64,000 bases of DNA from Schmidtea polychroa (taxonomy: Eukaryota), in the NCBI GenBank assembly GCA_044892525.1, contig CM097885.1, positions 251,968,001 to 252,032,000 on the forward strand. Direction: 5' to 3'. A program made the position numbers and the translations under genes. The notes beneath the pieces are model-generated. The model had not been told where the DNA came from. It saw only the letters and a list, made by a program, of their open reading frames with translations, and did not search any database. Positions 26,592 to 64,000 of this stretch are shown here, piece by piece (the stretch's first letter is position 1; the number at the start of each line of letters is the position of its first letter).

Positions 26592-27176
26592 TTATTCCAT
26601 ATTTGAGATTTCCTCCTGTCGTTTCTTTGAGCGCTCAGCACGCGTGAGGCACTTGCGCTTTTGGGAAGTTGGCTGAACGGGAACAGTGGTGGCAGCTACC
26701 AAAGCTGTCAGTGCCGTCATTGCGTTAGATAGTTGAGTCGGTAGCACGCTGGTTCCCACTAAGATGACATCAGGTACAGGCGGAGGGACATTTCAAGGTC
26801 GTGATTGTGGCAGATCGCCGTAGAATGGGCACTGTTTTCGTCGACACGGTGATGGATTGGGAAAACGTTCGACTTGTCGATGATCGGGAACTCATTGATT
26901 CTACTTTTCTACTCCGCTTCCGAATAGATGTGGTGGAGGGCCTCTGACTGCGCCTTGATAGTGAGGCGCTGGCATCGATTCTCCTCGAGCAGACTATCTC
27001 GACAGTGCTCTAAACGCAAGATTTTCCTATTGGCCTCTTTCATGAGTAGTGAGGAGAACCACGTCCCTTCGAGCGTGTCGATACGCTTCTTCAGAACCCC
27101 GAGATGGTCGTTCAGCTTCCGGATAGTCGCATATGTCTTTGAAATATGTCTTTGGAAGATTCGGTTCAGGCGTATG
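26592..27176 (-). pseudogene. 'WFxP' coiled-coil protein, copy A (stop plus frameshift)
   Basis: KRIDTLEGTWFSSLLMKEANRKILRLEHCRDSLLEENRCQRLTIKAQSEALH ... NVFPIHH ... KRKCLTRAERSKK; homologous to 45048-45794; AG acceptor at 27177-27178. Confidence 0.85.
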
Positions 27177-29337
27177 CTAAAAATTTAGAAAGATTTAGAA
27201 AGATTTATCTAACACGATTTCAGCTAAAGTTCAGAGGCTGATGTTGCCCTTCGATTAAATAATAGGTCAAAAAAGCAAGCAGCTCTTCTTTTGACAAACT
27301 CCAATCTGTCTTCCATTCTTTCTTTTATACTTGGTTTCGGTGAAATTTTCTTCAACGTTATCATCATCTTCATTACCATATAAGATTTAAAGCTTATTTA
27401 ACTGTACGTCTTAAAGATCTTGACATAATAAAATACTTCTAATTTGAATATAGAATCAATCCGAAATTGCAAAGTAAAATTACTCACGATTAAACAAACC
27501 AACAAAAAGTTTGTTCTAGGATTTATTTTCTGTGGCTTCAAGAGAAATTGTTTTTGTTTCAGACTTTCAAAAATAAATGTAAACTTCAACTAATAGGATA
27601 TTATACAGTTTCAATGCATAAAGCTTTTATATGATGCTTTTGATGGTTCTAGTAATAAATCAAAGTTTTTTATATTTGTGATCCGCAAATTTTTCTTATA
27701 ATCATATTTGTTGAGGAATTTCATTTGTTTTTAAAGTTTTTTATTGAAATTTTGATCCCAATAAATTTTCATAATTTCCAGCAGTATCCTGAGATTTTTC
27801 ATGTTCTTGATGTCAGCGAGTGTTTGAGGCCACAAATTGCAATAATTATTAATAATAATTTATATGTATTAATGTACTTTTTGTAAACTTTGGTAGAACA
27901 CCTTATTTATTAAGGAATTCTGAATTGAAAATTAACTTGTAATTCTTATTCATACTCAAAGTGATTGTAACGATGACTTGAGATTGATGTGGAATGCGTT
28001 AAATGAACAGTTGATTCGGAATGATGACTACAAGAATTGGTTATTATTGAATGATTTTTCATGAAATAAGATGATCATCTTGTTAAAATGAAATATAAAA
28101 TTATATTTTATGAATTGAGATGTCTGATTTTACAGTCAAATCACTGTGTGAGATAATACTACACCTAAAAATATCAGTGTTTAGGAAAGTTTTATGATAC
28201 CACAGCTACAACTTCAAAGCCAATGAGACTATAGAATTTTAGGAATTCAAGATGGGTTCAAAACCCCCAAAGTTACTAAACAATGTAGAACTACAATTTA
28301 CAGAAACACAGAATCGAAGGGTTGAAAAGGTCTAAAAGGTGGAATCGAGTCTTGTTCAGTTTATGAATGGTGGTGATGTATCACAAAGCGTGATTTAATC
28401 GGTCTCATGTAATAACAAAAAATTATTTCTACCAGTCAGATATAAATACTGCATCGCCATACCGACTTCATTGTCAACATTGAGCGAAATGCAGATGAAG
28501 ACGAAGATAGGTTTAATTCATTTTCCAAGCGCTAACGCAAAAAACAAGTTAAATGATTAACTAATTTTTTTTATATGTTTATAGTTTACTTTTTGATTGT
28601 TTCAAGGTTAATTAATTTAGTTTGTTGTAGCATAAATTTAGAATAGTACGAATAAGGGAACCTTTAAGGTAGAAATCAGATAAAACCTTATATCGGTCGT
28701 TATGTATCACAACGAATGACTTATGGTACGAGTGATGTTATGATTCGGTCGCATTGGCACCTAAGTAAATCAGTTAATCCACGAACACAAAATTATTTTG
28801 ATTCAACAAATCAATTATTTCAACCTACATCTCAGGATATTTTCAAGTAAAATATATAAAATATCAAAAACTATTTAAAAAAGAAATTTTTTTCAAATTA
28901 TGAATTTTATCGTATAGTTAGTAAAACAAGTAATTGATAAAAAATTAGTTTAAATTTGATAAAGTTAACAATATCGTAAAATAACCGATAACGCTTTAAC
29001 AATTGATCTGTGAACTTTTATTATTTATAAATTTGATTTATAAATTTTATTAAATTTTATCAAAATTTATTCATTTATTTAGTTAAATATTCTAATATTT
29101 AATTAAAATAAAATTTATTAGTTAAAAACCAACGTTTTTTTTTGGAAAAATATATATTTTTTATTTTTATGAAAATATTTTTGTGCACTTTTATATTTAA
29201 TTGCATTGTTTATAGAAAGATATTTTCATATTTTTGTTTTAAAATTCTTAGTAGTTTTAAATTAATTTAAATTGTCAATTTAATATTCTAAATAAAAAAA
29301 AGTATATAATTTTATTTTCAACCAAAGCTATATAATA

Positions 29338-32300
29338 ATGGAGGATATTCCACCCGTTAGACGTTTAACGCTTGGTAACGAATAAATACCATTTTAATGC
29401 ACTTTTATAATTATTGTAGGGTTAGCTTCCAAATTACATGTATTTAAAGCTTTTGATATGTTGCTTGAAAATCAAAGACATGTAATTAAATCTACTCCAA
29501 AATATAATTTTGAAGTCAGGGATTATTTAAAATCGATCTCTGTAAAATCTAAAGAAGTCGACGAAAGTGAAAAATCAATTGTCTCTAATATCGAACTAAA
29601 TAATGAAAATAAAAAAATTATTAAAAGACCCAAACAAAAACGATTGTTGATGTTAACTGACACGACAAATAATGGAAAAAACTGCTCCGTAAAATATTTT
29701 GTTTCGATCAATTCTGCTGTCAATTCTAAATCAAAATCCCAAAATCTTATTTCCTGGATGTCAAAGAGAAAATTTTCGGTAATATTTGTCTCAGAATATA
29801 GGTGAATTGCATATTAACATATTTATTAGTCGATAGATATTGTTGAAAATATTTCTATATGTGAATCGAAAAAAATCAAATTGGAATGGGAAGTCGAAAC
29901 GGAAATTGTGTTTACATATCCCGATATATTTTTTCAATCGACAAACTCATTATCAATCGACACAAAAAAGTTAACGTTCTACGTTCAAGCTCAAGGTATT
30001 ATTTTGAATTGTTTCTTTCATATGAATTCAGTATTTAAATTTAACCTTAAATTATTTATAAATTAATCTTAATAAATCCTAATAAATTTTAGGCTAAATA
30101 AGATTTTAATTGGTAATTAATGAATTTATTTATTGTTGAATGTCAAACAAAAGAGATAATATAGCAAAAATATGTTACTAAAAATAGAATTTTTATCTCA
30201 TTGGTCAATTTTATAATGTATGATTTTGGTATAATGATGAGGACATTTATAATTTTCTATTACACAAACATTTACACGAGTTTTCAATGACCAAACAACG
30301 TTCCTAAGCACGGATTAAGGTTTGACATAACACTATCTCGCCTACCGTAAATGCCAATCAAATGTAATATTAATAAAAAATATCCATATATTATAATTAG
30401 TAATTTTGTAGTTTATATTGATCGTGATTTGGCATTAAGTCGAGATACTGACTCTTGCTCGGTTCCCTTGTTGATCATTAATCGTCACAAAAGGACATAC
30501 ATACCAAAAACTCTCATATAAATGTTATTGTAATCCTTGATAATTTTACTCATCTGCTGTATTCTAACATAAGAAAATACTTCAATATTGTATTTCTCGA
30601 TAATCCGTTTATGCACATTACTAATTATATGACGAGGCATTTTGGTGACCTGGAGTTCCTAGCAGGGACATAAAACTCAAGTGTATTGAACTAATAGTAT
30701 TGGGGAGATTATCCAATTCCCTGATAGGATGCTCATGTAAGTTGTATTATCATTAATCGTCACAAACATACATAAAGATATACATACTAAAAACTCAAAT
30801 ATAACAGTCGATAATGGCAGTCGTAAAATATCATAGAAATCATGTTACTGGCCTACTGTATTCGTCTTTAATATAAAGGTGATATTTCACAAGTTTCTTA
30901 ACCTTTTAAGGTTGGTATACAAGGTGTCCATAAAGTCAGTGTGCAATTGAAATTACCTGTAGCTATATAACTATATGTGATAGATAGAATCTATGAAGCC
31001 AAAAGAAAGAAGAAATACGATTCTATAGTTCTCTGAAAACATTTCCCATTAATTATATCAGTTATCATATCTTGGAAGCCTTATAAACTGTCACATATAT
31101 TTTAATTGCACACAGTTTTAATTTAATTTTTTTTACCTATTAAGGCTTAATAATTAGGCAAAATGTTTAATAGGTGATAAAATATCTAAATCCGCTATGA
31201 ATGGTAATATGAATAATATGTAAGTGTTATATTAATTTATTGATTAATCAGTTTATTTTCATTGTTTTATTATAACACGATTATTAAAGATTTACGTTAT
31301 TCAAAATTTGAAAATATTGACAACATCTAGAAGTCAACAATTGTATGTTTTGTATTTATATATAATGCAAATTTAATATCCAATAATGTTTGTTACAAAT
31401 GTCTGAAATCCGCTTTACCAAAATTAACTTTCCCCACATTCAATTAGTATCTTATTTAAATAAATACCGTTTTTTCAATGCTATATTTTTAGTTTTCCTT
31501 AATAATGCCTTATTAATTTAATAATCAATTCAATAATTTAATAATCAATTTAATAATTTCTCAGTCAAACATTTTTAAAGTTTTCATATAAGACTGACTG
31601 TTAAGTTGTTTGTAACTGAAATTCTTTCTAATTTTGTAGCTAGAAACTATTAGTCCGGTGGATCACGAAAAATTGTAACGTGAGAAAATCCTACAGATAT
31701 AATAAGATATGTTAAAAGAGATTTTTAATCATTCACGGATAAAGCTTACATAGAAATTCATATAAATGTGACTGAGAATTGTTATACCATCCTTATTAAT
31801 TACAACTCTCAAATCTACTGGTTATGAAACTTGTCTCTTACTTCTTTCGATCCCAAAACTTTTCTTTTGTATGCATTCGAATAATGCTATCAACTAAAAA
31901 TATTAAATTAAGCTTTGGAATAAAATTTAATCTATTCTTTATTATAATAACGTGTTCAGGGTTAAATGAGATTGAATTGGGACTGAATGATGTGAAAACT
32001 GTCCATGTATACAAAGAACAAGCATTTATTAAATTTGTCATGAAAACATCAGTTCTCAGTGATTTAAAGCATTTATCAGATAGTATGAGAAATCAGTCAG
32101 GAAGGCCATTAAGATTGCCTTTAAAAAGAGGTGATAAGTTCTAATGAGAGTTTTTATTTGGTAACATTTCCAATTTCAGGGTTTAATGTGAAAGATATAA
32201 TGGTGATATTCACAAAGAGTTTGATTACCAACAATGATTTAACTGTGTTGAGAACAATTTTCGGTTTAGAGAAAGTTACTTTTAACAACAAAGAGGACGA

Positions 32301-38550: not shown

Positions 38551-38559
38551 TAATTACAC

Positions 38560-41884: not shown

Positions 41885-42290
41885 GTTGAACTTGTTGGGC
41901 GCTTAGGGGTGTGTCGTGACGGTGGTTACTAGGGGCAATGATTTATTGTCTCAGAGCAAGACTCCTTCCAAAACCCCCATTATGATTTATCAATTTTTCT
42001 CCCATACGTGTACCCATGAGGTTGCTCATGTTGGTGCTGTACACACGGGTTGGAATTCATGAGCAGGTGAGCCCCTGTGATATTCGCCTTTCGGGTTCTA
42101 GAATTTCGATAGAAGGGCTTACATCTTTCTTGTGGGGAATTCCTAAAATATTTCGATAAGCCTCTGGTCCAAATGAGGTCGTTTTTAATCACTCCTTTCT
42201 TTGGAGCGACTGTCAAATCAACATGACTTATCGTTTCCGAAACACCTTCAAATTAAACCAAAGACAGACGACACAAAAATTATATTAAGA
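41885..42290 (+). repeat. Dispersed conserved module, copy 2
   Basis: Colinear with 25865-26270. Confidence 0.85.
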
Positions 42291-42394
42291 GTAGTAACGA
42301 AAAGGCATTTGCACGTTCACTCACATCTGACATACTATACATCAGGTCTATAGAACCGATACCTTCACAAAGCAATACAACTAGTGAACCAGAT

Positions 42395-42820
42395 CATAAA
42401 CGGGTGTCGTTGAAGACCTTTCTGGACCATGATTGCGACAAATCGACGCAGACGGGACATTTATTTCGTCGGCACGATGATGTATAGGAAAGACGTTTCC
42501 CTTTTTCAAGGATTGGCAACTCATTTATTCTGCTCTTCAATTCATCCTCTTAATAAATGCGGCGGACGGCCTCCGATTGGGCCTAGATAGCCAGGCGTTG
42601 ACATGTACCTTCTTCGAGCAAATTGTCACGGCAGTGCTGCAGACGCAAGATCTTCTTATTTGCTTCTTTCATGCGTGGTGGGGAGAACCACGTGCTTTCG
42701 AGTGCATCTATACGCTTCTTTAGAGCCCCAAGATTTTCATTCAATTGCCGGATGACAGCATTTTTATCGGCACACGAAAAACAAGGTTTTGGGCCAGCTG
42801 TCAAGGTTTGGCTCTGACAT
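42395..42820 (-). pseudogene. 'WFxP' protein, copy B (stop plus frameshift)
   Basis: PKPCFSCADKNAVIRQLNENLGALKKRIDALESTWFSPPRMKEANKKILRLQHCRDNLLEE ... NVFPIHH; pyrimidine-rich AG acceptor just upstream. Confidence 0.85.
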
Positions 42821-44629
42821 ACTAGAAAGGGAAAAATGGAATTAGGTGGTGATTAAATGAAAACAGATGAGACTATGAGTGATCAGATGTCAGGTTGGGA
42901 TTGGTCAAACCTATACTGACTAGAGGAGACGTAAAATACCTACTCTAAAAAGTTCTACAAAAAGGTTGTTGAATTCTAACCGAATCTCTACTCATCGAAT
43001 TATTCCTTTAAGACAATTCTCCGAGATTTGATCGACACATCGAATTCAATTATTTTAATTATTATAAGTCATTTAACTCAAACGAAAATAAATCTAGCGA
43101 GTTCCAATGTGCGTGGCACTTTAATTCAGATGGCATTAGTGTACTTAATTCATTAATATAATCGCTTATATCCCCGTAAATTTAAAAGGAGATTTGTATT
43201 AATTCGCATTAATTCGATATAAAATTTAATTCAATTTCCAATCATTGAACGAGAACTCCCACCCCCCCCCATTTTTAGTTAGATAAATGTTCGGAGTCAA
43301 CTCATACATTGATTAGGATGGCGTCCAAAATTAAAAATCGCTCGATTATCGTTAGAATAATTATATTAATGATTGTTACTCGCGACGATAGACTAAATGA
43401 TATTCTTTGGATGTGTTCGAGACACCGTAGAAAACCTCGATTGGCCATTAGGGTGAAATAAACTATGATTAGTGTATTTATTGAAGATGTTATTTGTCGA
43501 ACAAAATTTCGTTTAAATATTTACGCGGCCTCTTTAAATTCTACATCCTGTTTATATTCAACTATTCGACAGGTTCAAACAAATAACGGAGATTTCAGGT
43601 GCATGATTTTGTAATGAGAAAATTTTCACTCTGATTCTGAAGTAGACTGGGTGTTAGAAAACTTCTGGCGTTAAATAAGCAATGGTGATTTAGACGTTGC
43701 TGTTCGACGAGAGTTACCCTAACTGACGTTTGTCATATGAATGAATTTCAATGTCATTTATTCGAAATTACTTTGACGAGCGTTTGTCAAGTGGATGAAA
43801 TCGAAAAGTGCGGCTAACTGATTAGTCGATGAATTCTTTCGGCGGCGTGATCTACGTGCGAAAGCGTTTTTAAAGATTAAGTTTCTCCGTTTGGATCTAG
43901 CGGTTCGTCGTAGCGAGAAAGAATCCTTAGTTCTGTACTACAAGTGATATTCTGAGATATAGCCTAGATTTAGCCTATCCACTAATCGATTCTGACTGCA
44001 TCGTTGATTTGAAGAATCCTAATGTCTGTAACTCCTATCGTCATAAACAATTTAAGCAATTCTCTCCGATACCATTCTTCTTCACACAGTCACCCCTTCA
44101 ACGTGCCGATCGGCGAAGACATCAGGTTACGCCATCAGTCCTGGAGCCAACGGTTCTCGTTCATATTTTTAATTCAGATAACAAAATTATTATATGATAA
44201 TTAGAAAATTCTGCATTAAAGTGCTGGAAAAAACATTTCTTGGATTTGTTGATGATAGTTCATCCACTTATCTACTCGCGATTCACATTTTTGATCGTCT
44301 AACCTGTCTCTTAGATTTTCGGTTCATTGGAGAATTTTCCGCAGACATCACAACTTGTTTCGGTACTTCCAACGTTTATATCTCCCCTCGTCCTACTCGC
44401 ACACACGCCTGAAACCATCCTCACCATCTTATCACGCCTCTCTCAGTCACTCACTCAGGTTACTCCAGTTCCTCATTCAACCAATTGCTGGGGTACTACT
44501 CGGTTGACCACCCTTAGTTCAACTTTTAGCCTAGGGGATGAGTGCCCATTCCGATTACGCTCGTCATTATTTTGTCAGCCCCGAGCAGGACCCGTTCATA
44601 ACCTATACTCCAACATAGCACCCGTGAAT

Positions 44630-44760
44630 TGCTTCACGTTGAAACTGTGCTATGCCGGCGAGACGCCAGTAAGCAGGTGAGCCACCACCTTTGGACTACT
44701 CCTTACTGAGACCTCGACTTCCTACCCCTGACCGCCGATAGAAGGACTTACGTCTATTCC
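44630..44760 (+). repeat. Dispersed conserved module, partial copy 3
   Basis: AAGCAGGTGAGCC...GGACTACTCCTT...GATAGAAGGACTTAC. Confidence 0.7.
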
Positions 44761-45047
44761 TTCTGTCACCCCATCGCCATACCTTGAGTTTGGATTGCAA
44801 ACTGACCAATACTCCTCGAATCTCAGAGACTTTCAATGCTATTTACCAACTTAATGCTAAATCTCTTACAAACAAAAACAAAACATATATATAGACGAAA
44901 ATTGTTTATTTTTAACATTGCTATACAGATACGTCGATAATTTATACAACAGAATTACAAGAATAAGGAAAAACGCAAGAGCAGAAAAACGATATTAGTT
45001 CGATTTCAGGACTCTCCGGAGGATGAGGTCGTTTCACGGGGAAATTC

Positions 45048-47539: not shown

Positions 47540-48178
47540 TAGAAAACTAAATAAAATATAAAGTAAAATTTCCTTACTATCGAATGAGGACTGAGTCGAA
47601 AATGTATTAGTCGTCTTCCAAAAATATTCTGATGATTTCAGATTCTGTGGCTCTTCGAGTGTCGATTTCTATTACTGGCTTAACTTTGAATTGATCGTGA
47701 GTCGCTGTTATCTCGGAAATCTATTGAAGTTGTTGGATTAACAGTCATATTTAAAATTTTCTTACCTATTGAAGTTGTTGGATTAACAGTGATCTTTATG
47801 ATTTTAGTGCCTGCTTATATATTAATTCTTCATTTACGCGGACCAATCAGAATTGAGTACCACTTATTTTCTAATTTAATTTACTTTTTCCTGTTTTTTG
47901 GTTATTTTCCTTAATTTTCCTTATTTTTATTATATTTTTTATTTGTTTTATTAACTTCCTGATTATTTATTGTATTTTTCGTTATTTTATGCGTCATTTT
48001 ATTTTCCTATTAAAATTCTCTTAATTTTATTTTTTGTTTTAATTCTTACTTTCTTAGTTGCTTATTTCTTTTATGTTTGATTGTAGTTTATTTTTAAGTT
48101 TGTTTGTTTGTTTTTTATTTTCATTTAGTTCCTTGCCTAACCTAGTTTCTTAGATACTTTTCGACTCAGCCCAACACA
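47540..48178 (-). promoter_or_regulatory. LTR-like promoter block pointing left (TGTGTTGGGC start, A-rich tract, CTGATTGG, TATA) bracketed by inverted repeats
   Basis: CCAATCAG at 47843-47850, TATATAAG on minus strand 47814-47821, IR TGAGTCGAAAA (47592) / TTTTCGACTCA (ends 48168); same layout as 53503-54272. Confidence 0.6.
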
Positions 48179-48579: not shown

Positions 48580-48830
48580 TTCTATTGTTGGGCAGTCGAC
48601 TAGGTCAACAAGCGTTTACTAGTTACCAAGGGGACGAAGGTCAAATCAAACAAACATACTCTCTTAGTTGACCGCAAATCAAAAACCCACTTGACTATTT
48701 TCTCACCATGACACCCATGATTTGCATCATGTTGGTGCTGTGCCATGATGGCGGGATAAGATGAAGCAGGTGAGCCTTAGGACTACTCCTTCACCCTATC
48801 TCGACTTCTCCGTTTCCTGACGGCAGATAA
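48580..48830 (+). repeat. Dispersed conserved module, copy 4
   Basis: CCCATGATTTGCATCATGTTGGTGCTG...AAGCAGGTGAGCCTTAGGACTACTCCTT. Confidence 0.75.
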
Positions 48831-51490: not shown

Positions 51491-51959
51491 AAACATGAAA
51501 GATTTATTTTTGAACTAATATATTTTTAAATTAATATTATTGCCATTATTATTATTTTTATTATTATTATTTTTATTATTAATATTGTTATTATTATCTT
51601 TCCACCAATTCTCACCAAGAACAATAAGTTGAAAATGAGAGATAGTAGCACGACTTAGATTGTTTTTGAAAGTTATGGCGAAGATAGGAACACCAAAGAC
51701 CAAAAAATTTTAGGAGCAGAAATACGATCAACCTCTTTAATTATGTTCCAAAACGGATTAGAAAACCTTCATTGTACTGTGAGCAAGACAATTTATCCTG
51801 TCTTCATTCCTACAAAGAAAACGAGTAAGTTCGGAGCCTCGTAACTGTAAGCAGACGACAAAATTAAAAAACACTACTCCCTGTCAAAAAACTATAACCA
51901 TACTCATGTTCAAAGAAAATTACGTCTTGAAAACATATTATAGTGGTGGGTTACAGGTG

Positions 51960-52260
51960 GTCAAACATCTCACCCTTTCGTGCTGTTTCCAGCGTAACCC
52001 AGAATGCAAGGTTGAATCTGCCAATGGACACCCGATGAGTGATCATCGTTGGTAATGTGTCAACTGGGTGAGTACTCGCAAAAGGTGAGCGCACTACTTG
52101 CACTATAATTGTCGAGTACTCTTTGGGTCCACGGACTATCGATAGAAGATCTGTGTCCGATTTCATTGGTCCCTTGCCTCTATTGTTCTCCCAAAAACGC
52201 ACATCTTATCACTCAACTTCATCATTCAACACGCGAGATTTCAATCCGGTTCTGACCATT
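51960..52260 (+). repeat. Dispersed conserved module, diverged copy 5
   Basis: GATCATCGTTGGTAATGTG...AAAGGTGAGCGCACTACTT...GATAGAAG. Confidence 0.6.
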
Positions 52261-52321
52261 AATCATCAAGCGGTTTTAACTTTGCTGCTTCTAATTCCTG
52301 CCCTTGTTCGGCTAACCGCAG

Positions 52322-52698
52322 TCATTTGATCCGCTCACGACCATCTCGGCCTAACCGCTTTCGTTTGGCTTTGGGCTTGGGTGGATGCATCTCGGCCAGT
52401 TCTATAGACATAGGTCGGATGGCTGCCGTGACATATTCGTCGATGGTCTGTTGATTTAATTTGGTCTCCATGGCCCGCATCTGTAGTTTCAGGGCTCGTA
52501 TTTCGGTCTTGTCTTGGGCGCTCTGAAGCTGCAGATGCTCAATCTACTTCAAGTACTTATGCGCCACCTCGGGGCGGAACCAAGACTGTTCCATGTTCCG
52601 GCAACGTCCTTTGAACTTGTTGACACTGGACTGGAGTCGTTCGACCTGCTGCTGCGCCTGCTCCCTGTCTTTCCGGAGGCCTTCAAATAGCTTATACA
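52322..52698 (-). pseudogene. 'WFxP' protein, diverged copy D (one in-frame stop)
   Basis: ...SSVNKFKGRCRNMEQSWFRPEVAHKYLK*IEHLQ...PKPKAKRKRLGRDGRERIK*; TTTTAG acceptor at 52699-52700; same position relative to the conserved module as the other copies. Confidence 0.6.
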
Positions 52699-53502
52699 CT
52701 AAAACGAAACTATCATTAAATGACTTTTACCATATATTATTTCGTTGTTGTTTGTATGCTTCTCTGAGATAAAAACTTCTATATCCATATACGAGATACT
52801 AAGCCCCATATGGGAGCGGTTTAACCTTAGGGTTCAACTAGAAAATATAATTTTAAAACAGTCGTTTATTTAAATAATACAGCAGTCGGAGTTCGTGAAA
52901 ATCACTACAATCAAGGAAGTATAAGCACAAGTCCACTGAGATCGTCGAGATTTTATCTTCGGGGGGCCTTCTTGCGGGGTCGGCCCCGTTTCTTCTCGGG
53001 CTTCGACTCAACTTCCGACTCCGACGGCACGGATCTGAGCCTCAATCAGGCGAAGCTCATATTGTGTTCTGACGATGGCGCTAGAGCATCTGTTTCTCGC
53101 CGGTTTCATTTCTCGTCGAGACGAGAGTTCTCGACAAAATTTGTACGAGATCTCGAGAAATCTCGAGATATTAATACATAAGAAAATGTAAAGAAACAAA
53201 AACAAATCATATAGAGTAATATAAAATTTATTCATTTTTATTAAAATATGATTTTAAAAAACATAACATATTTATGGAATCATCTCCCAATGCAGAACGT
53301 TTTTTAGTAACAAAATTTCCGGCAGTTGAAAAAACTCTCACTCTCGGTCGATGTTGGCTTAATTATTTTTAACGCTTCCAAAATATTCTTCAAATTGCCC
53401 GAAATAATCCCATTTAACTCATATAAATTAAATTCTTTAGTCAGGGATTTGTTTATATCCTCATTTATCGGCATTGTCTTGAACCGAGATGCTACGTTTT
53501 GT

Positions 53503-54272
53503 TGTGTTGGGCCAAGCTTCGAGAGCGTTGGAAATCAGGTTAAGGATGAATAAGAAGGGATAAAATAAATTTCATGAAAATCGCGGAAAAATATAAAAAA
53601 CAACTAAATTAGATAACCATAAAAGAAATAAGAATATAAAGGGAATAAAAATAACTAATAAAATAATAAAATGTATAAGACGAAAAACAAGACGAAAAAG
53701 AAAAGTATCCAACACACATAATAACGGAAGGAAATAAAATAATAAAATCTAAGGAAAATAAACAAGAAATTAAGAAATAAAATAGAAATAAAATCATTTT
53801 CAAATAAATGTATAGGCTAATTAAAACAAAAAAATTATACTATAACCAAATAACAATAAATTCGCAGGAAAAACAGGAGAAAAATAATAAAAAATAGAAA
53901 AATAAATAAAGTAATAATAAAAATAAGAAAAGTCGTTAAAACCTAACATATTACATTAAAAACATAAAAATAATAATAAATAATAACATTGCACACAAGG
54001 CGTGTCCTGATTGGACGAGAAATAGTATAAAAGAAATGGAAAATATCTGTAGAGTACCATTTAACCGCTATACTCTACAGACTTAGAAACCTATTTTTGG
54101 ACATCACTACAACTTATTCAACAGTAACCTTTTGATAGACGACAAGTTAAAATCATTCGAAATCATTCAGATAGAGATCAGGATTTTAAAGGGACGAAAC
54201 CACTAAACTTAGAAAACAATTCGAATATTCTTAACGATATTTTCAACGCTCTCGAGGAAACTTTTGGTAAGT
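53503..54272 (+). promoter_or_regulatory. LTR-like promoter block pointing right, bracketed by inverted repeats, ending in a splice donor
   Basis: TGTGTTGGGC start; IR TCGAGAGCGTTG 53519-53530 / CAACGCTCTCGA 54244-54255; CTGATTGG 54007-54014; TATAAAA 54026-54032; G|GTAAGT 54267. Confidence 0.65.
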
Positions 54273-55629
54273 GGTATGAATGAAAATTGTATGATAATTT
54301 TAGATATAATAATGAACAATAAAAACATTTTATTTTAATAAAATTTATACTTTCAAAGATGCATTCTTTCTTTATGATGGCTGGCGACGATGTCGTCTAG
54401 GAATAGGATGTGATGCGGCGAATTTGAATGAATCTGAAGAGAATGTCTGGGAACGAATAGCAGGAAAGGAGGAACTTGAATCGAGGTTTGAAATGAAATG
54501 AATATCACGCGAGCTGATTTTTTAATGCATAACGAGCATCACCATGCGGCATCATATCCGAAACGTAGACGGCGTGGTCGCCAGGTAATTAATTTTCCAT
54601 TCCGTAGATATGATTTTATAAGATTGATTCATTCATGAACCTATTTGATTATATTCCTTTTTGTAATTATTTATGATTCACTTGTGGAATAATAATTGGG
54701 AAGATAGAATCGTCCTTCCTGACGGTCCAAGAGTGGTGGCAGCAATGTATGCCGTTCTTGGGTGGGTCAGGAGGGGTGAGGACATCTAGTGAGTGGCAGA
54801 AAGCAGTTGTAGGGACAAGTCTTTTCATCGAGTGCGATCCGTGGTTATCGTTATCGTAAATATTTCCATCAGAACGAATTACAGTCAGGAAATTTAATGT
54901 AGAGGACAAATCCATGGAGAATTTTAGCAAAATTGCGGAACTACTAAGTATAGACACTATATCCAATTGTCTTTTCTCAAATCTCGATTGAATACGAACT
55001 ACGGCTTGTACTTGCCGACTAATAGTGTCGAAATATCCAAACAGCAGAGACCTGTATTCACGCGATATTGACGATAGAATTTCATAGGAAAATTGTGAAA
55101 CGGTAGTCTTCTAAGGTTTGAATCGCCAGGACATTGGCGACGAAACCCATCTACGATGTACTTTTAGGCTGAATTTTCCACTCTTGTATTGCTGATAAGC
55201 CTTGATTCTCTGAAAATAAAGTAAACAAATCCTGAGGAATTATCGGAATACTTACGGCCGATATGAAGGAAATCGCTGTCAATGTTATCGGCTAATTGCT
55301 GAACGAATTTCAGTTAGATTTTGAGTAACCGAGTTAGATGACGAACAAAAATCTAATAGGAGAGATAACGTGATAATTTCCGACATGATCTGTATAGTGG
55401 GCGTAGTGATAAATATCGCCTTGAGTCAACAACACGATAGAGGACGGATTAACAGTCCCAATTTACTCGTAATTCTCTACATCTGTCACATACTGTCTGC
55501 GGCGATTACTCATGGAAACTCTAGTAGAAAATTCTAAGGGACTACCTCTCGAGAATGCATACAGTTAGACACACAATAGCGAAATTTCTCCTGGTAGGAT
55601 GATAGTAAATCCGAACAGTAAATTGTGTT

Positions 55630-56987
55630 ATGTCATCAGAAGCGAAATTAGCGAGAAATAGAGTGCTAACAGCATATCGCAGATTGTTGAATGATATAAA
55701 TGTCGAGGACGACATTTTAAACGACAGCGGGGGAGATAAAGACGACGATAATGATGAAGATAAAGACGACGATAATGATGAAAAAGGGCGAAACGAGGAT
55801 AAAGAGAAAAAGAAACCAGAAGGGAATAATCAAGAAAACGACTCAAGTATGAAAAAGGAGGAAAATAACCCGGGAAACCGAACAAAGGAAGAGGAAAAGA
55901 CGAATAATGAAAAACAGAGGGTATGCCTACTTTTCACCAACAAGGAAATGGAGACAAATATGATGATAATGATACTTGTACTAACAATGGTGGAAATGAT
56001 AACAGCCCAGGGAGGAATGAGAACGATAAAAGAAGCCAAAGAAACGAAAAATGAAGACAATAAGGAGGAAGAACTAAACCAGGAAAAGAAAAAACGAATA
56101 CAGGATCAACAATGGGATCTTCAGGAAGAATGGGATCTAAAGGAAAAGTGTATAATAGGGAAATGTATGTCTAGAGCTTATAAGAGACTAGTGCTAATAA
56201 ACGAAGATACGGAACCAATAACGGAAGTGGGAATACAAGAAGCGTACCAACATCGAGACGGAAAGAAAATAACAAAAGTTAAATGGAAGGAGGTACACCT
56301 GGGTAAAGGAGGCGAGATAGTGATAACACAACTTCAGCCGAGAAAGGAGTACAAAGTTTGTATTTCAAGGTTAGGACCAGGAGAAGACTGGTTTACAATA
56401 TGTAACACAGAAACAACCCCCAAAGGAATATACGGTCTGTATCTTGAGAAACGGTCCAGAGAGAGAATGTCGACGATATCCTGGGAAAAGAGGCAAGAAA
56501 AGGAAAATCATTGATGAAAAAGATGAGGAAGAAAGCGCAAGAAAACCAGCGAGAAATATCAGGACAACTATGTGTCAGAGGAAGAGATGGAAAAAATACA
56601 AAAAATGGCAAGAGAAGGCATGAACGAGGAGATAGCGAGAATACGAGGAATGATAAAGGGAAATGGCAAAGGCGGTAATCCGAAAAGTACAGAGAGGATA
56701 TCAACAATAACAAACAAGGAAAAATCAGAAATTATAAGCGTGAAACAGATGATGTGGATAAGTGGAATAATAATAGCAGGGGCATTTTTAATCATAACGG
56801 GGGAACAATAAAAATAATCAAAGATAGATGGCATCGCGGAGAACTGGAGATGGTCAGAATGAGAAATTTTCAACATCGAGTAAAACGACCAAGTAATATC
56901 AAGCAGGAACAGTGGGTGGAGGCCTGGAATGCTCAGCGCCCTCCAAACTCACACATAGAAAGGATTATGACTGTATATAAATTGTAA
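55630..56987 (+). pseudogene. Acidic N-terminal segment followed by a type I membrane protein (signal peptide from ATG 55948, FN3-like domain, TM, cytoplasmic tail), frameshifted
   Basis: MMIMILVLTMVEMITAQG; EIVITQLQPRKEYKVCISRLGPGE...TETTP; TM MMWISGIIIAGAFLIITG; tail in ORF 56754-56987. Confidence 0.6.
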
Positions 56988-57111
56988 AAAGTAAGTATGT
57001 AATATTTATTTATATAACAGTATTCTATATCTCTATATAAGCGCGGTATCAATATTATATGATGACGGGGATAAATAACATAAAAATAAAATTAGATAAG
57101 GGTTGAAAAGT

Positions 57112-57486
57112 ATGTATAAATTGAGAATGGAGCAAATAAACAACGAGGTACATCACAGCACGACAACCGAAGAGATGTGGAAACAACAATGTGCAATGCT
57201 GGCCCAAGTAATTTCGAATTTACAAGAACAAGGACTTGCGGTACAAAGGAACTTAGTCGACAGTTTGAATAAAGGATTCAGTTATGTAAGAATCATCGAA
57301 GATCAACGGATAAAAATAGAGCAAATGCAGCAAGAAATAGATCGAATATCGTGATACAGCCAGGGACAGGAAGAGGAGTTAATGAGAATCGCGGAAGAGA
57401 TGGAGAGAGAGGAGATAGAAGACTGGTCTGAATGGCTAACCAGTAGGGAAGAGGGCGGACAAGAGGCCGACTCTTCCAGCCAATAA
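57112..57486 (+). pseudogene. Small coiled-coil/acidic protein with one in-frame stop at 57352
   Basis: The frame continues past TGA as YSQGQEEELMRIAEEMEREEIEDWSEW... to TAA at 57484. Confidence 0.55.
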
Positions 57487-57574
57487 ATATAACCTAAAAC
57501 AAAATGTAAATAACTGTAAATAGAAATACGAGATTGTACCAGTAACGAATATATGTATATATATAATTATAGAA

Positions 57575-58960
57575 ATGGACAAGCGACTAAGAGAAGAGTT
57601 CAAAGAGATTGTCGAACAAGTCAGAAAATCCACCACAATTCGAATACATGACCATGTGAAGTGTGGAATATGCAAGGGATTATTAAAGGAACCTCACCAA
57701 ACCAGATGTGGATGTAGAATGTGCAAGGAATGTGTAGAGGAGATAATAAAGAAGGGACCACAATGGTGCCCGGTATGTAAAGAAACCATGATAACCAGTT
57801 TGGGAGATACAAACGAGGACAAAGCAGCAGTAAAAGATATGTTGAATGCAAATTTAGGATGTAAAAACACCCCATGTAATTGGCGAAGATTGATATGGGA
57901 AGTCAAGCAACATATAGAAGGATGTGCGTATAAAATCAGTCAATGCAAGCGCTGCCAGGAAGTGATAAAAGCCAATGAAGAAGCAGAACATCAAAGTCGA
58001 TGCGAAGAAAGGCTGGAGAAATGTGAATATTGCGGAGAAACCGATACCCGAAGAAAACTAACTAGTCAACATCATAACTTACAAGAGGAGAAAGTGTGCG
58101 CAGAATTCAGAGGAGAATGTCCCAACAAATGCGATAAATCCGGAGTAATAAAACTCGCTCAACATCTGAGAATGTGAAAGGATAAAGATAACGTGTGTGT
58201 TAGGAAAATGGGGATGTCAGAAACAATTACACCGAGGAGAATTACCCCAACATCTAGCAGAAAACGTATCAACACACGCGGAAATGTGGTCAACGGTATT
58301 ACAAGAAAACGAAAGGAAAACCGAAAACTTAGAAAAGAAATAATCTCGCTAAAAGCGTTGGTAAAGGAGTTATATCAAGAAAAAGAAGCATTTGAAGAGG
58401 CGAGAACAAGTACAAAGATACAGACCGACTTAGTAGAAACTAGCAATAATATGGTGAAGGAACTACACCAAAAGGTAAGCGAAATGAACCTCAACGAATT
58501 ATTACCAACGGCTCCCTACATATGGAAAATAACGGGAGTAAAGGAAAAAATGCAGAAAGCGAGAAACGGAAAGGATACAACATTACTAAGTCCAGCATTC
58601 TATTCATGGAAAAACGGGTATAAAATGAAAATGAAAGCATATCCCAACGGGGATGGAAGCGCATACGGAAAACATTTCTCAGTATTCTTCTTGATGTGCA
58701 AAGGGCTATACGACGAGTTAATAGAATGGCCATTCAAAGCAAAAATAGACCTCGCAATGATGAATCATCAAAGTATACATGAACAGAGTTTTCATACAGC
58801 AGGAAACCTCGTATGTTATCAAAGGCCATTGAAAGAAGAAGGACCAGCATCCGGAGCACCGAATTTCATCTTATAGCGAAAAGTAGAGGATATGACGAAG
58901 AACGACACCATATACATAAAGATAACGGTGAGGCGAGATGGGAAGAGCAGAACAAAATAA
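57575..58960 (+). pseudogene. TRAF: Intronless TRAF (RING, TRAF zinc fingers, coiled coil, MATH) with two compensating frameshifts and one nonsense codon
   Basis: RING CGICKGLLKEPHQTRCGCRMCKEC..CPVC; shifted frame about 58167-58335 ECERIKITCVLGKWGCQKQLHRGELPQHL; MATH YIWKI..SPAFYS..GYKM.M.AYPNGDG..GKHFSVFF....YD.LIEWPF; after TAG 58874 the frame continues KNDTIYIKITV. Confidence 0.93.
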
Positions 58961-59181
58961 CGAAACGAATAATTTTGTATATACTAATTTGTAAATATCG
59001 GCGTATATATCCAGTAAAATATTATATAATAGTGTAGAAAAACCCCAAATATACTAATGGTAAACTCAAGCGGAAAAATTCTAAAGTGACCCACTGATAA
59101 CGAATTGTAAATAATAAATAAATAGCGAAAACAAATATAATTATGCTACGCCAAGTTAATAATATCGTTATTTAGCTAAAG

Positions 59182-60210
59182 ATGGCACAAGAAACCCCAA
59201 ACCACGAGATAAGAATCAATAAAGTACACAGAGAAAGATGGGCCAAAGTGATGGCACAACTAGCAAATCAAACACGAAACTATCTCGAAGAAGCAAGAGA
59301 ATGGAAGAACCACCAATTCCAGTGGCTGGTGCAGAATTTAAGAGCGGAGGCAGAGGCCTGTAAAAGAGCCGCCAAGTGGTCGGCACTAGAAAGTACGCGA
59401 CAGGAGGCACATGGCCACTACCTGAAACAACTGGTACAGGAGTCAAGGAAAAGGTTAACTGATGAGAATAAGAAACGGGAAATAGAAAAACAAAAGGAGG
59501 AAAGGAAAACCCGTCAACTATTGGCAGAAGCCAGAAAGTGGAAAAGGCAACATCGAGAAATTAAAAAGGAAATGAAAGAACTACCTCAGAGGCTAGAATA
59601 CGAAAGTGAGCAAGGAAAGTGGGAAGAAAACCTAGATCAGAGAGAAGAGCTGAGAAGGCTCAGAAAAATCGCCGCCCGTAGTCAAACCTGGCAGACCAAG
59701 GCCATGGAATTCGAAAGGCACTTGGCCATGAAAATATCCATAAAGGAACAGGAAAATACTGCCATGGAAGAAATGATCCTGCAACAATCAGGAAGAATCG
59801 TAGAACTCGTGAACAAGGTAGCAGACCTAGAACGAGACAACAACGGCTATAAAGGGGCACTAGAGCAAAGGAACATAGCGCTAGGCGGAAAGAACAAAAA
59901 ATTGGAAAATGAAAGGAAAATGTATCATGAAAACATCAAGAACTTGGAAAAGGAGATAAAAAAATGGGAAAACGGCGAAAAGGCCGAAGAGTTAGAAAAA
60001 CAGATAGAAGTAAGAGATGATGAAACCAGGTATCTGACATACCTGTTGGACGAGGAACTTAACGTTTCAAGAGCATTGAGAGACGAAGTTCAGGAGCTTA
60101 GAGCTCAGATTCCTCGATACTATATCCCATTCGATCCCATCGCACTCCATCTACAAGCATCAGTAGAAAGCGATGAAGGATATGTTGGCCAGGAAGAAAC
60201 CTTTGTGTAA
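59182..60210 (+). CDS. Hypothetical coiled-coil protein (342 aa), intact
   Basis: Uninterrupted ATG ORF, E/K/R/Q-rich heptads, Trp-punctuated; no family recognised. Confidence 0.75.
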   Translation: MAQETPNHEIRINKVHRERWAKVMAQLANQTRNYLEEAREWKNHQFQWLVQNLRAEAEACKRAAKWSALESTRQEAHGHYLKQLVQESRKRLTDENKKREIEKQKEERKTRQLLAEARKWKRQHREIKKEMKELPQRLEYESEQGKWEENLDQREELRRLRKIAARSQTWQTKAMEFERHLAMKISIKEQENTAMEEMILQQSGRIVELVNKVADLERDNNGYKGALEQRNIALGGKNKKLENERKMYHENIKNLEKEIKKWENGEKAEELEKQIEVRDDETRYLTYLLDEELNVSRALRDEVQELRAQIPRYYIPFDPIALHLQASVESDEGYVGQEETFV

Positions 60211-60382
60211 AGATAAATGGAAAAGATAAAAAAAAATCGGGACCTATATCCCAAACAAAAAAATTAATAGTATGGTTAAACTATTTACGGGACTGTAACC
60301 CTGATTAGATAAAATTACATATAAATGTATAAGTATAAGCCGCACTGTAGCGCAATTATTAATTATGTATATATTATAGAAA

Positions 60383-61084
60383 ATGAACACTGAAAACGGA
60401 CAACCCATCATAACATCTATAATCGAGCTGAAAGAGGGAGAAATTGAAGTAGAAGAAGTGGAGAGGAAGAAAACTATTAAGGAAGAATTACAAGAGGAGA
60501 GACAAGAAAACGAAAGATTAGTAGAAAGATGGAGAGATAATCGAAAAATGATTAAAGTATTGAAAAAAGAATATACCTTGTTAGAAGAAGTAAAGAAAGA
60601 AGTAGAGGAAGAAAACGAATGGCTTCACGAACAAAGAAAGCGTGGGAGAAATTGGGAAAAGATCGCGGGAAAATTATGGCAGGAAAGGGCCAGTAGAAAG
60701 GCAGATGAAGTGATTAGCGATTATTGGAAAACCGAGGCACGAAAACACCAAGAAAGCCTGAAAGAGTTACAACTCCAACTACACCAAAAACAAAAGGAAT
60801 GTGAGATAATGAGAAGAATGAAAAACAAATACCAAGAAATAGACGACGGAGAAGATGAGGAAAGAGAAAATGACTTTCTACAAATAATGAACCATAAAAA
60901 CCTAGAAAGGGCAACACAAGAAATAAAAGTGTTAAAAGGAAAAATAACAATCCTAAAACAACAGGTAGACGAAAGAGACAAACAACTAGAAGTACTACCC
61001 GAATTGAGAAAACGAGTAATAAAAGCAGAAACTGAAGTGATGAGAGCATCTGAGAAAGCCCGTAAAAAGAAAACCCGGCAATAA
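60383..61084 (+). CDS. Hypothetical coiled-coil protein (233 aa), intact
   Basis: Uninterrupted ATG ORF, E/K-rich heptads. Confidence 0.75.
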   Translation: MNTENGQPIITSIIELKEGEIEVEEVERKKTIKEELQEERQENERLVERWRDNRKMIKVLKKEYTLLEEVKKEVEEENEWLHEQRKRGRNWEKIAGKLWQERASRKADEVISDYWKTEARKHQESLKELQLQLHQKQKECEIMRRMKNKYQEIDDGEDEERENDFLQIMNHKNLERATQEIKVLKGKITILKQQVDERDKQLEVLPELRKRVIKAETEVMRASEKARKKKTRQ

Positions 61085-61137
61085 TTAAAGATGAATTATT
61101 GATGTAAATAATTGTAAATAAAAATTCGTATAGTAGT

Positions 61138-62260
61138 ATGTGGCCCGGAGCAACCCTGGTAACAATAATGATGATAGCAATAAACGGAATACCCATGTGG
61201 CAGTCAATCCCAACACGTTGGAAGATTCCCGAAAAACAAATAATGAAACTCCGACTAATAGTGGAGAACGAGCTCGAAGATTTAATTCCTTCTCATTCAC
61301 AATATCTGTTGCAAAGTATAAAGCAATGGAAAATGAATTTAAAGCATTATTCAACGATAAATCCTTCACCAGATTCGTTGCCGGTCAAGAGGAGCAAGGT
61401 GACGGTGGATTCCGTCATTTGCAGATGTATTGTGAGGTATTATTTATTTTATTCGATTATGATTAATTAATGGAATAAAATTTATAATTCAGATTTACAA
61501 CAATATGTCTATTTATGCCTTTAGGGCAAAAACGTTTATACCATTTGTTCGAGGAATTGCCGGGACTGAGAGAGCGGCCGCAATCGCATATGCGACTAAA
61601 CTCGATTCTAGAGTCGCTGGAGGAATGAGCATTAAATTTGGACAGCCAAGTAAATATAATAGTTCGAATACTATAGATTATTTCAAAAAAGCGTTGAATT
61701 CTTCCTCTATGAAAGAAGGTCTCGAAATATTAATGCAGAATGAAGCTTTTCATTATACCACCAAGAGGAAGACAATAATAGAAACTTTCGTTAATAAATT
61801 TGGTCTTGCAACTATGCCTAATTTTGGCGATAATTTTTTAATTGATAAATTTAATGTATATGATTGGAAAAGTCACATTTTTGTTGGCGATAGTGGAATA
61901 GGAAAAACTAATTTTGCACTTGCTCATTTTAATAAACCAGTTCACTGTAAACATCTACAAATGCTCAATCGAATTACGGATGATATTTCTCATTGCGATG
62001 GAGTGGTATTCGATGACCTTTACTTTAATAAATGTCGAGTAGAAGAATTTCTCGCTTTAATAGATTGTGCGTACGAGAACGTTATCAACATCAAATATTC
62101 TGTAGCTGTCCTACCAAAGGGATTACCACGCATTTTCTGTATAAACGATATCGATCTTTTTTACCCAGAATGTGTAACATCTACAATAATGGAGGCAATT
62201 AAAAGACGAATAAAAATACATCATTTCAGAGGAAGAATTTTTATTTATTTTATTTATTAA
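61138..62260 (+). CDS. rep: CRESS-DNA-virus-type Rep (HUH endonuclease plus SF3 helicase), split by a probable intron of about 60 nt
   Basis: Motif I FTIS (61296), motif II RHLQMY (61416), motif III YATK (61589), Walker A GDSGIGKT (61886-61909), Walker B VVFDD (62003-62017), motif C IFCIN, Arg finger AIKRR; AT-rich GT..AG segment 61432-61493 restores the frame. Confidence 0.9.
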
Positions 62261-62532
62261 TATATGTTTTACAGACAATGATACATCCCTATCTGACAAC
62301 GAGCCAGTCGTCCAGCCAAAATGCCGATTTGTCTCCCTCGAATGCAGAAGCTGCAACAAATTAATGCGATTGTATATTGGTGTTTGTAACAATAGTTTTT
62401 AGTTTCATTACCTAATAAATGCATATTAGTGTTTTTTGAAAATAGTTTTTAGTTTAAATAGTCAATAAAAGTTAGAAGAAATTTTTTATTTTATCAAATA
62501 TATCGTATTTGACATCGTTTAATACATTTATA

Positions 62533-63141
62533 TCAGAAAAAAACATCTAAATTAACTTTAAATTCATAAGGTTTTTGAACTACAATATATAAAGACCTAT
62601 TTTTCAAAGCTTGTTCATGTTCAGATGCATATTTCCAAATTGGATGATTGTTGGATATAATACATGGACAATTTGTTAATTCAATTTTAGAATCTCCTTT
62701 ACGTGAAACTTTAAGAAATATATTCCCTTCGCACATTAATTTAAGCAAATTGACATTTTTAAAATCACAATAGATTTCTTCTCCAATAATAATTTCTTTG
62801 CCAACACAATCATCAAAACAGAATTCACTTTGAGTTTGAGCACCGGTGAAAAATCCATGTTTTAATGTTCCATGACATATTGCAGTAAATAAAGTTTTTC
62901 CTCCATTACTAGCACCTTCTAGAATAATTGTCTTTGTCTTTCCGGCCTGAGAAGATAGTATTGTATAGATCCCAATAAGCCGACGAATATACTTTTCATT
63001 TTCTTTAGGAACAATTTTACTATTATGAGAAAGAATTCGATTAATTTGTCTATTGTGATCATCGTTAAAATAGAAATTATTGTTATTAATAAAACTCTCC
63101 ATAAAAGTTGATAATTCATTGTATAACAACAACTTGTTCAT
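62533..63141 (-). CDS. Stand-alone SF3 helicase, parvovirus NS1 / papillomavirus E1-like, without a nuclease domain (202 aa)
   Basis: KTKTIILEGASNGGKT (Walker A 62893-62916), SEFCFDDCVGKEIIIGEE, LKLMCEG..LKVSRKG, PCIISNN parallel the parvoviral KRNTIWLxGPxxTGKT / NFPFNDC...WEE / AKAILGG.V.VDxK / PVIVTSN series. Confidence 0.88.
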   Translation of the reverse strand: MNKLLLYNELSTFMESFINNNNFYFNDDHNRQINRILSHNSKIVPKENEKYIRRLIGIYTILSSQAGKTKTIILEGASNGGKTLFTAICHGTLKHGFFTGAQTQSEFCFDDCVGKEIIIGEEIYCDFKNVNLLKLMCEGNIFLKVSRKGDSKIELTNCPCIISNNHPIWKYASEHEQALKNRSLYIVVQKPYEFKVNLDVFF

Positions 63142-63194
63142 GATTAATGAAATGACTCATCGATGTTTTGTACTTTTATTCAAAAATATATAGT

Positions 63195-63350
63195 AAAGTA
63201 AAGGCAATTTACTGTGCCTTCGTTACAAAGGTAATTTACTGTACTTCCCTATATATTTTTGAAAACTCCCACGCAGTCTTTTGTGTGCGGTGTGCTCCTT
63301 ATAGACTTGGGAAATGGGGGGTATGGGGGCCCTGTAGCCCTGTAGGCCCC
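63195..63350. promoter_or_regulatory. Candidate replication origin / bidirectional control region
   Basis: Hairpin AAGGCA-ATTTACTG-TGCCTT 63201-63220, an imperfect copy with the same loop 27 nt downstream, and a GC stem GGGGGCC...GGCCCCC near 63325-63350, between divergent genes. Confidence 0.45.
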
Positions 63351-63400
63351 CTAAACAAATTAAAAAACGAAAGAAAGCCATACAACAACATCCAGGAACA

Positions 63401-63715
63401 ATGTTGGAACAAGCCGTATGGCAAAAGATTCAAATGCAACTCAGCCTGCAAACCCAAAGAATTGAACAACTCGAAACTCTCCTACAAGAACAAACCACTC
63501 AACAATCACTGTAGGAAACCATCGTGAAGAAGGAAGCAAAAGAAAGTCAAGTCTTACTCTATACTGCAGTCAGTGAAACCCTTATCATCTGCGCGCTAGT
63601 CGTCTGGAAAGCGTATGACATCTATCGAACATGGGAAAGAAACCAGCCACTATCCTGTATGCGGGACAGACGTAATAAACTTCGAGTCGTAAGAGTGTCA
63701 CTGACAATACCGTAA
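63401..63715 (+). pseudogene. Small coiled-coil plus TM protein with one in-frame TAG
   Basis: MLEQAVWQKIQMQLSLQTQRIEQLETLLQEQTTQQSL*ETIVKKEAKESQVLLYTAVSETLIICALVVWKAY... reads in a single frame. Confidence 0.5.
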
Positions 63716-63751
63716 TGTTTGCAGTGTGAGTATAAATGTCTTAACTTTTAG

Positions 63752-64000
63752 ATGACTACCCCAACCAAGTCCGGAAGCACTCTTCGTCCTTGCTTTTCCT
63801 GTGCCGATAAAAATGCGGGGAATTATATCGGGGAATTAAAAAAGAGGATCGACCTCTACGAAGGAACGTGGTTCTCCCCGCCACAAATGAAAGAAGAGAG
63901 CAGTAAAATCTTGCGATTAGAACATTGTCGCGACAGCCTCCTGGAGGAGAGCCGCTGTCAGAGACTGACAATAAAGGCCCAGTCGGAAGCCCTCCACAAG
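63752..64000 (+). pseudogene. 'WFxP' protein, copy E (in-frame stop, truncated by the window end)
   Basis: TTTTAG|ATG; MTTPTKSGSTLRPCFSCADKNAGNYIGN*KKRIDLYEGTWFSPPQMKEESSKILRLEHCRDSLLEESRCQRLTIKAQSEALHK. Confidence 0.85.

Follow-up and report, generated by a model that had tools for sequence, protein, structure and literature searches.

An accessory reading frame inside the long terminal repeats of giant Burro-type Ty3/gypsy elements in Schmidtea polychroa

WFxP copies at the locus

The stretch analysed here, referred to as the window, is 64,000 nucleotides (nt) long and comes from Schmidtea polychroa (assembly GCA_044892525.1, contig CM097885.1, positions 251,968,001-252,032,000, forward strand); its GC content is 31% and it contains introns and repeat debris. 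An earlier sequence-only reading had described in it five copies (A to E) of a protein family called WFxP, and the five open reading frames (ORFs) are found at the coordinates and on the strands it gave. That reading was right about a shared ORF but missed that the ORF is not free-standing: it is a fixed part of long terminal repeats (LTRs), and the flanks of the copies classify as LTRs of giant Ty3/gypsy elements of the Burro type. The features of the window that bear on this system are as follows.

25871..27176, minus strand: old A-type LTR, 3' part, containing WFxP copy A (broken, 27176 to 26424); the LTR 3' end is at 25871
41893..42820, minus strand: A-type LTR, 3' part, containing copy B (broken, 42820-42395); the LTR 3' end is at 41893
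44486..48176, minus strand: C-type solo LTR of 3.7 kilobases (kb), with TG...CA ends and a 4-bp target duplication, ATTG
44905..44910, minus strand: AATAAA downstream of ORF C; such a signal follows the ORF in C-type LTRs only
45048..45794, minus strand: copy C, an unbroken ORF of 248 amino acids, after a predicted splice acceptor near 45805
47197..47335, minus strand: covarying twin-hairpin RNA in the predicted LTR intron, a candidate response element by covariation and folding
47765, minus strand: first predicted splice donor GT of the C-type solo LTR
47816..47848, minus strand: predicted promoter (ATTGG box and TATA box), laid out as in full elements
51944..52734, minus strand: D-type LTR, 3' end, containing copy D (52698-52322), which has one internal stop
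53505..64000, plus strand: internally deleted E-type Burro element; its LTR starts at 53505 and its LTR end, at 65029, lies past the window
54712..54782, plus strand: predicted E-type intronic hairpin in the 5' LTR remnant, 6/23 pairs compensatory in 10 copies
55639..61238, plus strand: closing part of the polyprotein plus accessory ORFs (RING-TRAF and three more), with 87% identity to a whole E-type element; the match resumes at 63352-63655
61238..63351, no strand assigned: a different repeat, inserted here and outside the WFxP system, with two helicase-like ORFs in convergent orientation (61463-62257, plus; 62536-63156, minus, Parvo_NS1)
63752..64000, plus strand: copy E in the 3' LTR, with AG immediately 5' of the ATG and an early stop at 64225, past the window

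Copy C is the only unbroken one of the five. Its sequence and model give a CxxC motif, a coiled coil with a WFSP hinge, a linker, a K/R-rich helix and an acidic tail. Reading of copy A goes on in another frame into the acidic tail and ends at 26424, and copy E suffers a frame break before its premature stop at 64225. Copies A and B represent an older, fourth LTR type. Most details of the sequence-only reading hold: the block shared by A and E is identical at 22 of 23 residues with 14 synonymous codon differences, exactly as claimed, PCFSC is found in B, C and E, basic tails are found in A, C and D, and a pyrimidine-rich AG precedes every copy, in line with the proposed start after a splice acceptor. 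Young D-type copies read WIRP in place of WFxP. Homology of copy D to the other copies is weak (hhalign probability 6.7%, E 0.005). It aligns to them without gaps but weakly, and its profile score has a median of 7.6 bits, a value reached by 1/1000 plain and 5/1000 heptad-preserving shuffles, while 12 control ORFs score at most 2.1 bits. Homology of D gains weight from its identical position in the LTR.

Another LTR 3'-end fragment lies at 48586-48791 and contains a conserved GGAGTAGTCC block; no ORF was identified in this fragment. Three further WFxP copies are located past the window end (68316-69025, 76640-80512 and 81129-81418), one of them in a solo LTR with the duplication TCAC.

Host elements and selection on the ORF

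Searches of the species' own genome (781 Mb in four large contigs) with copies C, E, D and A each listed at least 150 scored matches. Behind these lists stand 6794 (C), 6612 (E), 3876 (D) and 4990 (A) candidates, which overlap one another and are not copy numbers. The WFxP ORF is present in at least hundreds of genome copies. Many matches occur as same-strand pairs 15-31 kb apart. Thirteen such pairs were fetched, 12 of which are whole LTR elements, and the remaining one is a tandem duplication with other genes. This 24-kb duplication carries an E-type ORF together with an ORF cluster that appears Polinton-like by eye (packaging ATPase, capsid-like).

The whole elements fall into three types according to their LTRs, which measure 4.1 kb (C), 4.2 kb (E) and 5.6 kb (D). 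The two LTRs of an element are 97.7-100% alike and have TG...CA ends, and a 4-bp target duplication is present in all 10 of the 12 elements in which both ends were read. A primer-binding motif is common to the whole elements, and we take it to be tRNA-Pro-like. The WFxP ORF is present in both LTRs of every whole element, in the sense direction, ending 0.3-0.6 kb before the LTR end. At 116 other loci an LTR 3' end adjoins the ORF in 108 cases (28/29 for each of the C, E and D types and 24/29 for the A type), compared with 1/28 control loci.

Pfam matches order the polyprotein as gag, zinc knuckle, fusion glycoprotein, protease, reverse transcriptase (RT), RNase H, integrase and ankyrin, and a single polyprotein ORF spans 4732 amino acids. 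Gag lies elsewhere in the element than the WFxP ORF. Downstream of the polyprotein are TRAF and BIR ORFs; C and E types have a RING-TRAF ORF, and in the D type MATH is found in the polyprotein, accompanied by a BIR-RING ORF. D-type elements also contain a RING-finger ORF of 160 amino acids between the 5' LTR and gag, following AG/ATG (the slash marks the junction; locus L191, 8378-8857). Two elements with E-type LTRs have accessory ORFs unlike those of other E-type elements, and one of these sets resembles that of the C type, giving mosaic elements.

This layout matches that of Burro, also called GYPSM1, a giant planarian Ty3/gypsy element, as far as the available text of PMC6431247 describes it, and on layout and membership features the elements are assigned to the Burro type. 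The likeness extends to the size of 26-36 kb, the accessory ORFs and the very large number of copies, and also to the great length of the single polyprotein, in which a fusion glycoprotein separates gag from pol, and to the ankyrin, TRAF and BIR domains (PMC6431247). Burro-type elements themselves are already known. They differ in one respect: the account in PMC6431247, in the part available, names no ORF inside the LTR. No Burro LTR ORF was found in the literature searched, although the original description (Grohme 2018), figures and supplements lie outside that search and may show one. The accessible portions of PMC11410931, PMC7264820, PMC13524379, PMC6884822 and PMC10558129 likewise yielded none.

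Selection on the ORF was estimated by the pairwise Nei-Gojobori method from unbroken copies of equal length, namely 20/24 of the C type, 5/6 of the E type and 14/18 of the D type, to which 2, 2 and 1 copies from whole elements were added. The ratio of nonsynonymous to synonymous substitution (dN/dS) is 0.12-0.13 for pairs more than 8% apart, a value biased downward by the choice of unbroken copies and drawn from pairs that are not independent of one another. It agrees with the earlier claim of purifying selection in diverged element lineages and lies far from a neutral value near 1. For pairs 3-8% apart the ratio is 0.31 (C), 0.14 (E, one pair) and 0.13 (D), and for the closest pairs 0.37 (C) and 0.79 (D). 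The closest pairs are nearer to neutrality, a pattern that selection on replicating lineages, with drift of copies once inserted, would produce. The corresponding proportions (pN/pS) in four other frames are 1.07-2.73, and one antisense frame has 0.21-0.29, which probably mirrors the third position of the sense frame. In one element pair dN/dS is 0.10 for the ORF versus 0.06 for the polyprotein and 0.07 for TRAF. Amino-acid motifs are kept across LTR types whose DNA does not align. On these comparisons, the WFxP ORF is best described as an accessory gene under purifying selection that forms part of the LTR.

The LTR is decoupled from the RT of the element in which it is found. C and E types are 98% identical in RT and 53% identical in the N-domain of the ORF. 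Between two E-type elements, differences at fourfold sites amount to 17/123 in RT, 14/134 in env and 18/27 in the ORF (Fisher p 1e-9); two other element pairs give p 0.015 and 0.075 in the same test. This decoupling suggests that LTRs are swapped between internal regions, which is its simplest reading, although a much higher mutation rate of the LTR may also produce it.

Predicted gene layout, RNA hairpins and protein of the LTR

In all nine C- and E-type elements there is an ATTGG box, the TATA box lies 350-520 nt into the LTR and an AG/GTAA donor follows about 45 nt further on, and all three D-type elements have CACGTG, TATA and a GTAAG donor. The ORF lies 2-4 kb downstream of the predicted TATA box. 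On the acceptor side, AG/ATG is seen in 27/28 E-type loci, AG followed by ATG in 26/29 C-type loci, and both in 10/26 decayed A-type loci. D-type ORFs lack an in-frame Met before residue 35 (16/16), and yet those 34 codons are constrained. Their start is AG/TG in 42/46 matches (the loci overlap), and an A precedes the first donor in 8/9 copies, so splicing is predicted to create the start codon. Since the ORF is preceded by the TATA box, donor and hairpin of its own LTR, everything expected of a gene appears to be present even in a solo LTR such as that of copy C.

Most C- and E-type LTRs contain a second copy of the predicted first exon, about 45 nt further downstream (47700-47810 in the window; locus L039, 3630-3715), and two of four C-type elements have a single copy. 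Another conserved ORF, about 125 amino acids long (HIWHHIHRW, C-terminal RGRP), lies upstream of the WFxP-like ORF in 17/20 loci of D-type LTRs (L191, 6200-6610; L210-L229). Contigs of four presumed-RNA runs were placed on a D-type LTR; some span the ORF, one is unspliced across the predicted acceptor, and none has a joint there. A GT..AG joint at 2814-9390 was rejected as an A-rich mis-match with a 21-nt side and no pyrimidine tract.

Between donor and acceptor, C-type LTRs contain a block that is conserved in 14/15 further copies. It comprises two hairpins (fold z -5.9 and -4.9) within the predicted intron, some 0.5 kb beyond the TATA box. In 18 copies 13/47 of their pairs are compensatory, a count reached by 0/500 shuffles, and slid controls give 1-4 pairs. 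E-type LTRs have a hairpin of their own, the one listed at 54712..54782 with its 6/23 compensatory pairs in 10 copies. Rfam returned nothing relevant in three LTR loci.

In an alignment of 25 protein sequences, a conserved CxxC is followed by a helical domain with its hinge at TWFSP, a linker that varies, a K/R-rich segment and an acidic tail. The basic segment has 8-11 K+R per 17 residues, 4-7 of them R, in 36/36 proteins and is modelled as a helix. A reading of this helix as bZIP was considered by eye and dropped. The acidic tail (D/N-hydrophobic-x-x-hydrophobic-hydrophobic, net charge -3 to -9) is present in 19/19 C- and E-type and 3/6 A-type proteins and is modelled as a short helix. AlphaFold2 places helices at residues 17-42, 48-101, 183-214 and 243-248, with a mean pLDDT of 63.7 and a pTM of 0.34. 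For residues 8-118 the model is a parallel homodimer whose interface contains C14, C17 and the WFSP hinge; this model scores 0.61 against 0.01 for the best of three controls, with pLDDT of at least 78 and at least 92% contact agreement between runs. The mark used for a dimer is reached by 21/30 microbial and 17/29 eukaryotic solved homodimers and by 0/23 and 0/30 single chains; for eukaryotic homodimers without an older relative it is 1/7. The cysteines may form a zinc clasp between the two chains of the modelled dimer.

No known host gene and no gag or ORF1 domain was matched in Pfam, sequence or fold searches. Among 25 members the best Pfam hit is Rootletin at E 0.013, far below the cut-off. 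Homologues were found in 0/496 candidates (near lengths only), the best PDB sequence match has E 0.46, the best ESM Atlas value of 0.83 is at chance level, PHROGs gave no match, and fold searches gave 0 hits at E 0.001 (best 0.04 and 0.41); because these collections hold few flatworm repeats, such blanks do not show novelty. A search of 1.84 billion representatives gave a single match, to a tandem-repeat protein; it concerns the linker and was rejected.

Possible functions and comparison with known systems

The sequence-only reading called WFxP a conserved nuclear accessory or regulatory protein. The accessory part of this stands, while the nuclear regulator is plausible on indirect grounds. 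Our preferred reading, to which we give a probability of about 0.5, is that WFxP acts as a Rev/Rex-like nuclear RNA-binding regulator that binds the folded RNA of the LTR intron, whereby unspliced element RNA is kept and exported. Any LTR, solo LTRs among them, would express the ORF by joining a short leader to it through splicing. Genomic RNA would have to keep the intron, or daughter LTRs would lose it, whereas the ORF needs its removal; a switch between spliced and unspliced RNA would therefore be required. The protein is predicted to pair in parallel as a coiled-coil homodimer, with the two cysteines of CxxC in the interface, its K/R-rich helix would read the hairpin, and protein and hairpin would be inherited and swapped jointly as one cassette. 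In the Rev-like plan, according to the available text of PMC5568270, a protein that oligomerises through a coiled coil carries an arginine-rich motif and an export signal and has a cognate RNA element. In Caenorhabditis elegans, the available part of PMC10309623 describes CERV of the Ty3/gypsy element Cer1 as a nuclear accessory protein, made from a spliced mRNA, that is needed for export of genomic RNA.

Several observations weigh against a Rev/Rex-like role. WFxP is not a member of the Rev family, and the searches matched it to no Rev-like protein in sequence or fold. Lysine accounts for half of the basic segment, which is compatible with a plain nuclear localisation signal, and the acidic tail of the C, E and A types is, as we see it, more like an activation domain. 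With the strict consensus for export signals taken from the accessible portion of PMC4168985, no site is common to all types and any site at all occurs in 1/10 C-type proteins. A loose class-1a spacing is found 50 residues past the W in E, A and D with a proline in the spacer, is missing in 10/10 C-type proteins, and occurs somewhere in 39-66% of shuffles. C- and E-type hairpins have no DNA similarity to each other, the D-type hairpin candidate folds weakly (z -2.3), and the covariation counts ignore relatedness of the copies. A generic coiled coil may also pass the dimer mark from the memory of the model.

It is possible, though we regard it as doubtful, that WFxP is instead a Tat/Tax/Tas-like activator of its own LTR, with the basic helix targeting promoter DNA or nascent RNA and the acidic tail recruiting co-activators. 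The tail is kept although the linker has diverged, promoter and ORF travel together, and the second ORF of D-type LTRs ends in RGRP, presumably an AT-hook-like motif. However, the tail is absent from 11/11 D-type WFxP-like proteins, and the covarying hairpin sits about 0.5 kb past the TATA box in the predicted intron and not at the RNA 5' end. Neither the hairpin nor the LTR position would be explained if the protein blunted piRNA (PIWI-interacting RNA) or heterochromatin silencing of Burro, or titrated a host coiled-coil partner. Such an anti-silencing or host-interfering factor is in our judgement unlikely, the selection signal being purifying with no sign of positive selection. Yet it would suit the much faster divergence of the protein than of RT (53% versus 98% identity, C versus E), the host-like nature of other accessory ORFs (TRAF, BIR), and the active repression of Burro by piRNA silencing that the available part of PMC10558129 reports.

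It is very improbable that the ORFs are a host gene family that arose by domestication, or that a non-coding constraint imitates selection on codons. The 8/116 loci lacking an LTR end and the low pN/pS (0.21-0.29) of one antisense frame could be taken that way, but the latter probably reflects the sense third position, the closest pairs drift toward neutrality (D 0.79, C 0.37) as inserted copies do, and motifs persist at the amino-acid level between LTR types with non-aligning DNA. Least credible of all is the earlier proposal that WFxP, as an accessory gene common to both, connects the retroelement debris with the Rep/helicase block. Copy E does lie only about 400 nt from this block, and one other Rep/NS1 copy is found within a WFxP ORF. 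The block, however, is a nested insertion, a 2.1-kb piece of another repeat that interrupts an accessory ORF of a single E-type Burro element; the flanks (55639-61238 and 63352-63655) correspond, at 86-87%, to successive stretches of a whole E-type element. Of 17 distinct other block copies in 9 regions, 16 have no WFxP within 1.5 kb and one has, and Rep/helicase ORFs occur in none of the ORF lists of the 12 whole elements.

The inserted repeat itself has 134 and 51 genome matches. The copy at 61238-63351 is a truncated member of a small element present in multiple copies, whose two P-loop helicase-like ORFs converge; one is Parvo_NS1 and the other has no Pfam match. A hairpin is present at 63179-63263, other copies have a short terminal palindrome, and copies cluster on C3 near 28.1 Mb; possibly this is an endogenous single-stranded DNA virus-like element. 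Elsewhere in the window are a long exon with an Ulp1/SENP peptidase C48 domain (32125-34176), likely of a host gene, a DDE_1 (pogo/Tigger-like) transposase remnant (8295-9673) and an ordinary gypsy RNase H-integrase fragment (37270-38553).

If the Rev/Rex-like reading is true, complex-retrovirus-style control of RNA would extend to flatworm Ty3/gypsy elements, and with the regulator downstream of the LTR promoter every solo LTR would be a potential gene. The protein would then offer one small target of RNA interference for probing the effect of Burro on its host. Annotators should note that this abundant 'unknown protein family' is element-borne and not host. Tentatively, and with less confidence than in the regulator itself, the Burro LTR may be seen as a self-contained swappable cassette of promoter, intron, RNA response element and reader gene, exchanged as a unit, with the many solo LTRs scattered as a gene family that would decide in trans which of the env-bearing elements export RNA in planarian stem cells.

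Compared with the Rev-like systems (HIV Rev/RRE, HTLV Rex, MMTV Rem, HERV-K Rec), as described in the accessible text of PMC5568270, WFxP has in common the small size, coiled-coil oligomerisation (here modelled), a modelled basic helix that may serve as the arginine-rich motif, likely spliced expression and, as a candidate, a structured RNA on the predicted unspliced message. It differs from them in having no sequence or fold likeness, no conserved export signal and an extra acidic tail, and in that gene and hairpin are both inside the LTR, downstream of the LTR promoter. CERV, in the available part of PMC10309623, is similarly a Ty3/gypsy accessory protein with conserved cysteines, nuclear and spliced (for WFxP both are predicted), but is large, with three predicted domains and a ring-forming M domain. 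Likeness between CERV and WFxP did not surface in any search, although no direct comparison was made. MMTV sag and HIV nef are accessory ORFs in U3, upstream of the promoter. They resemble WFxP as accessory ORFs inside LTR sequence, but the WFxP ORF lies 2-4 kb downstream of its predicted TATA box, and each LTR could express the ORF alone.

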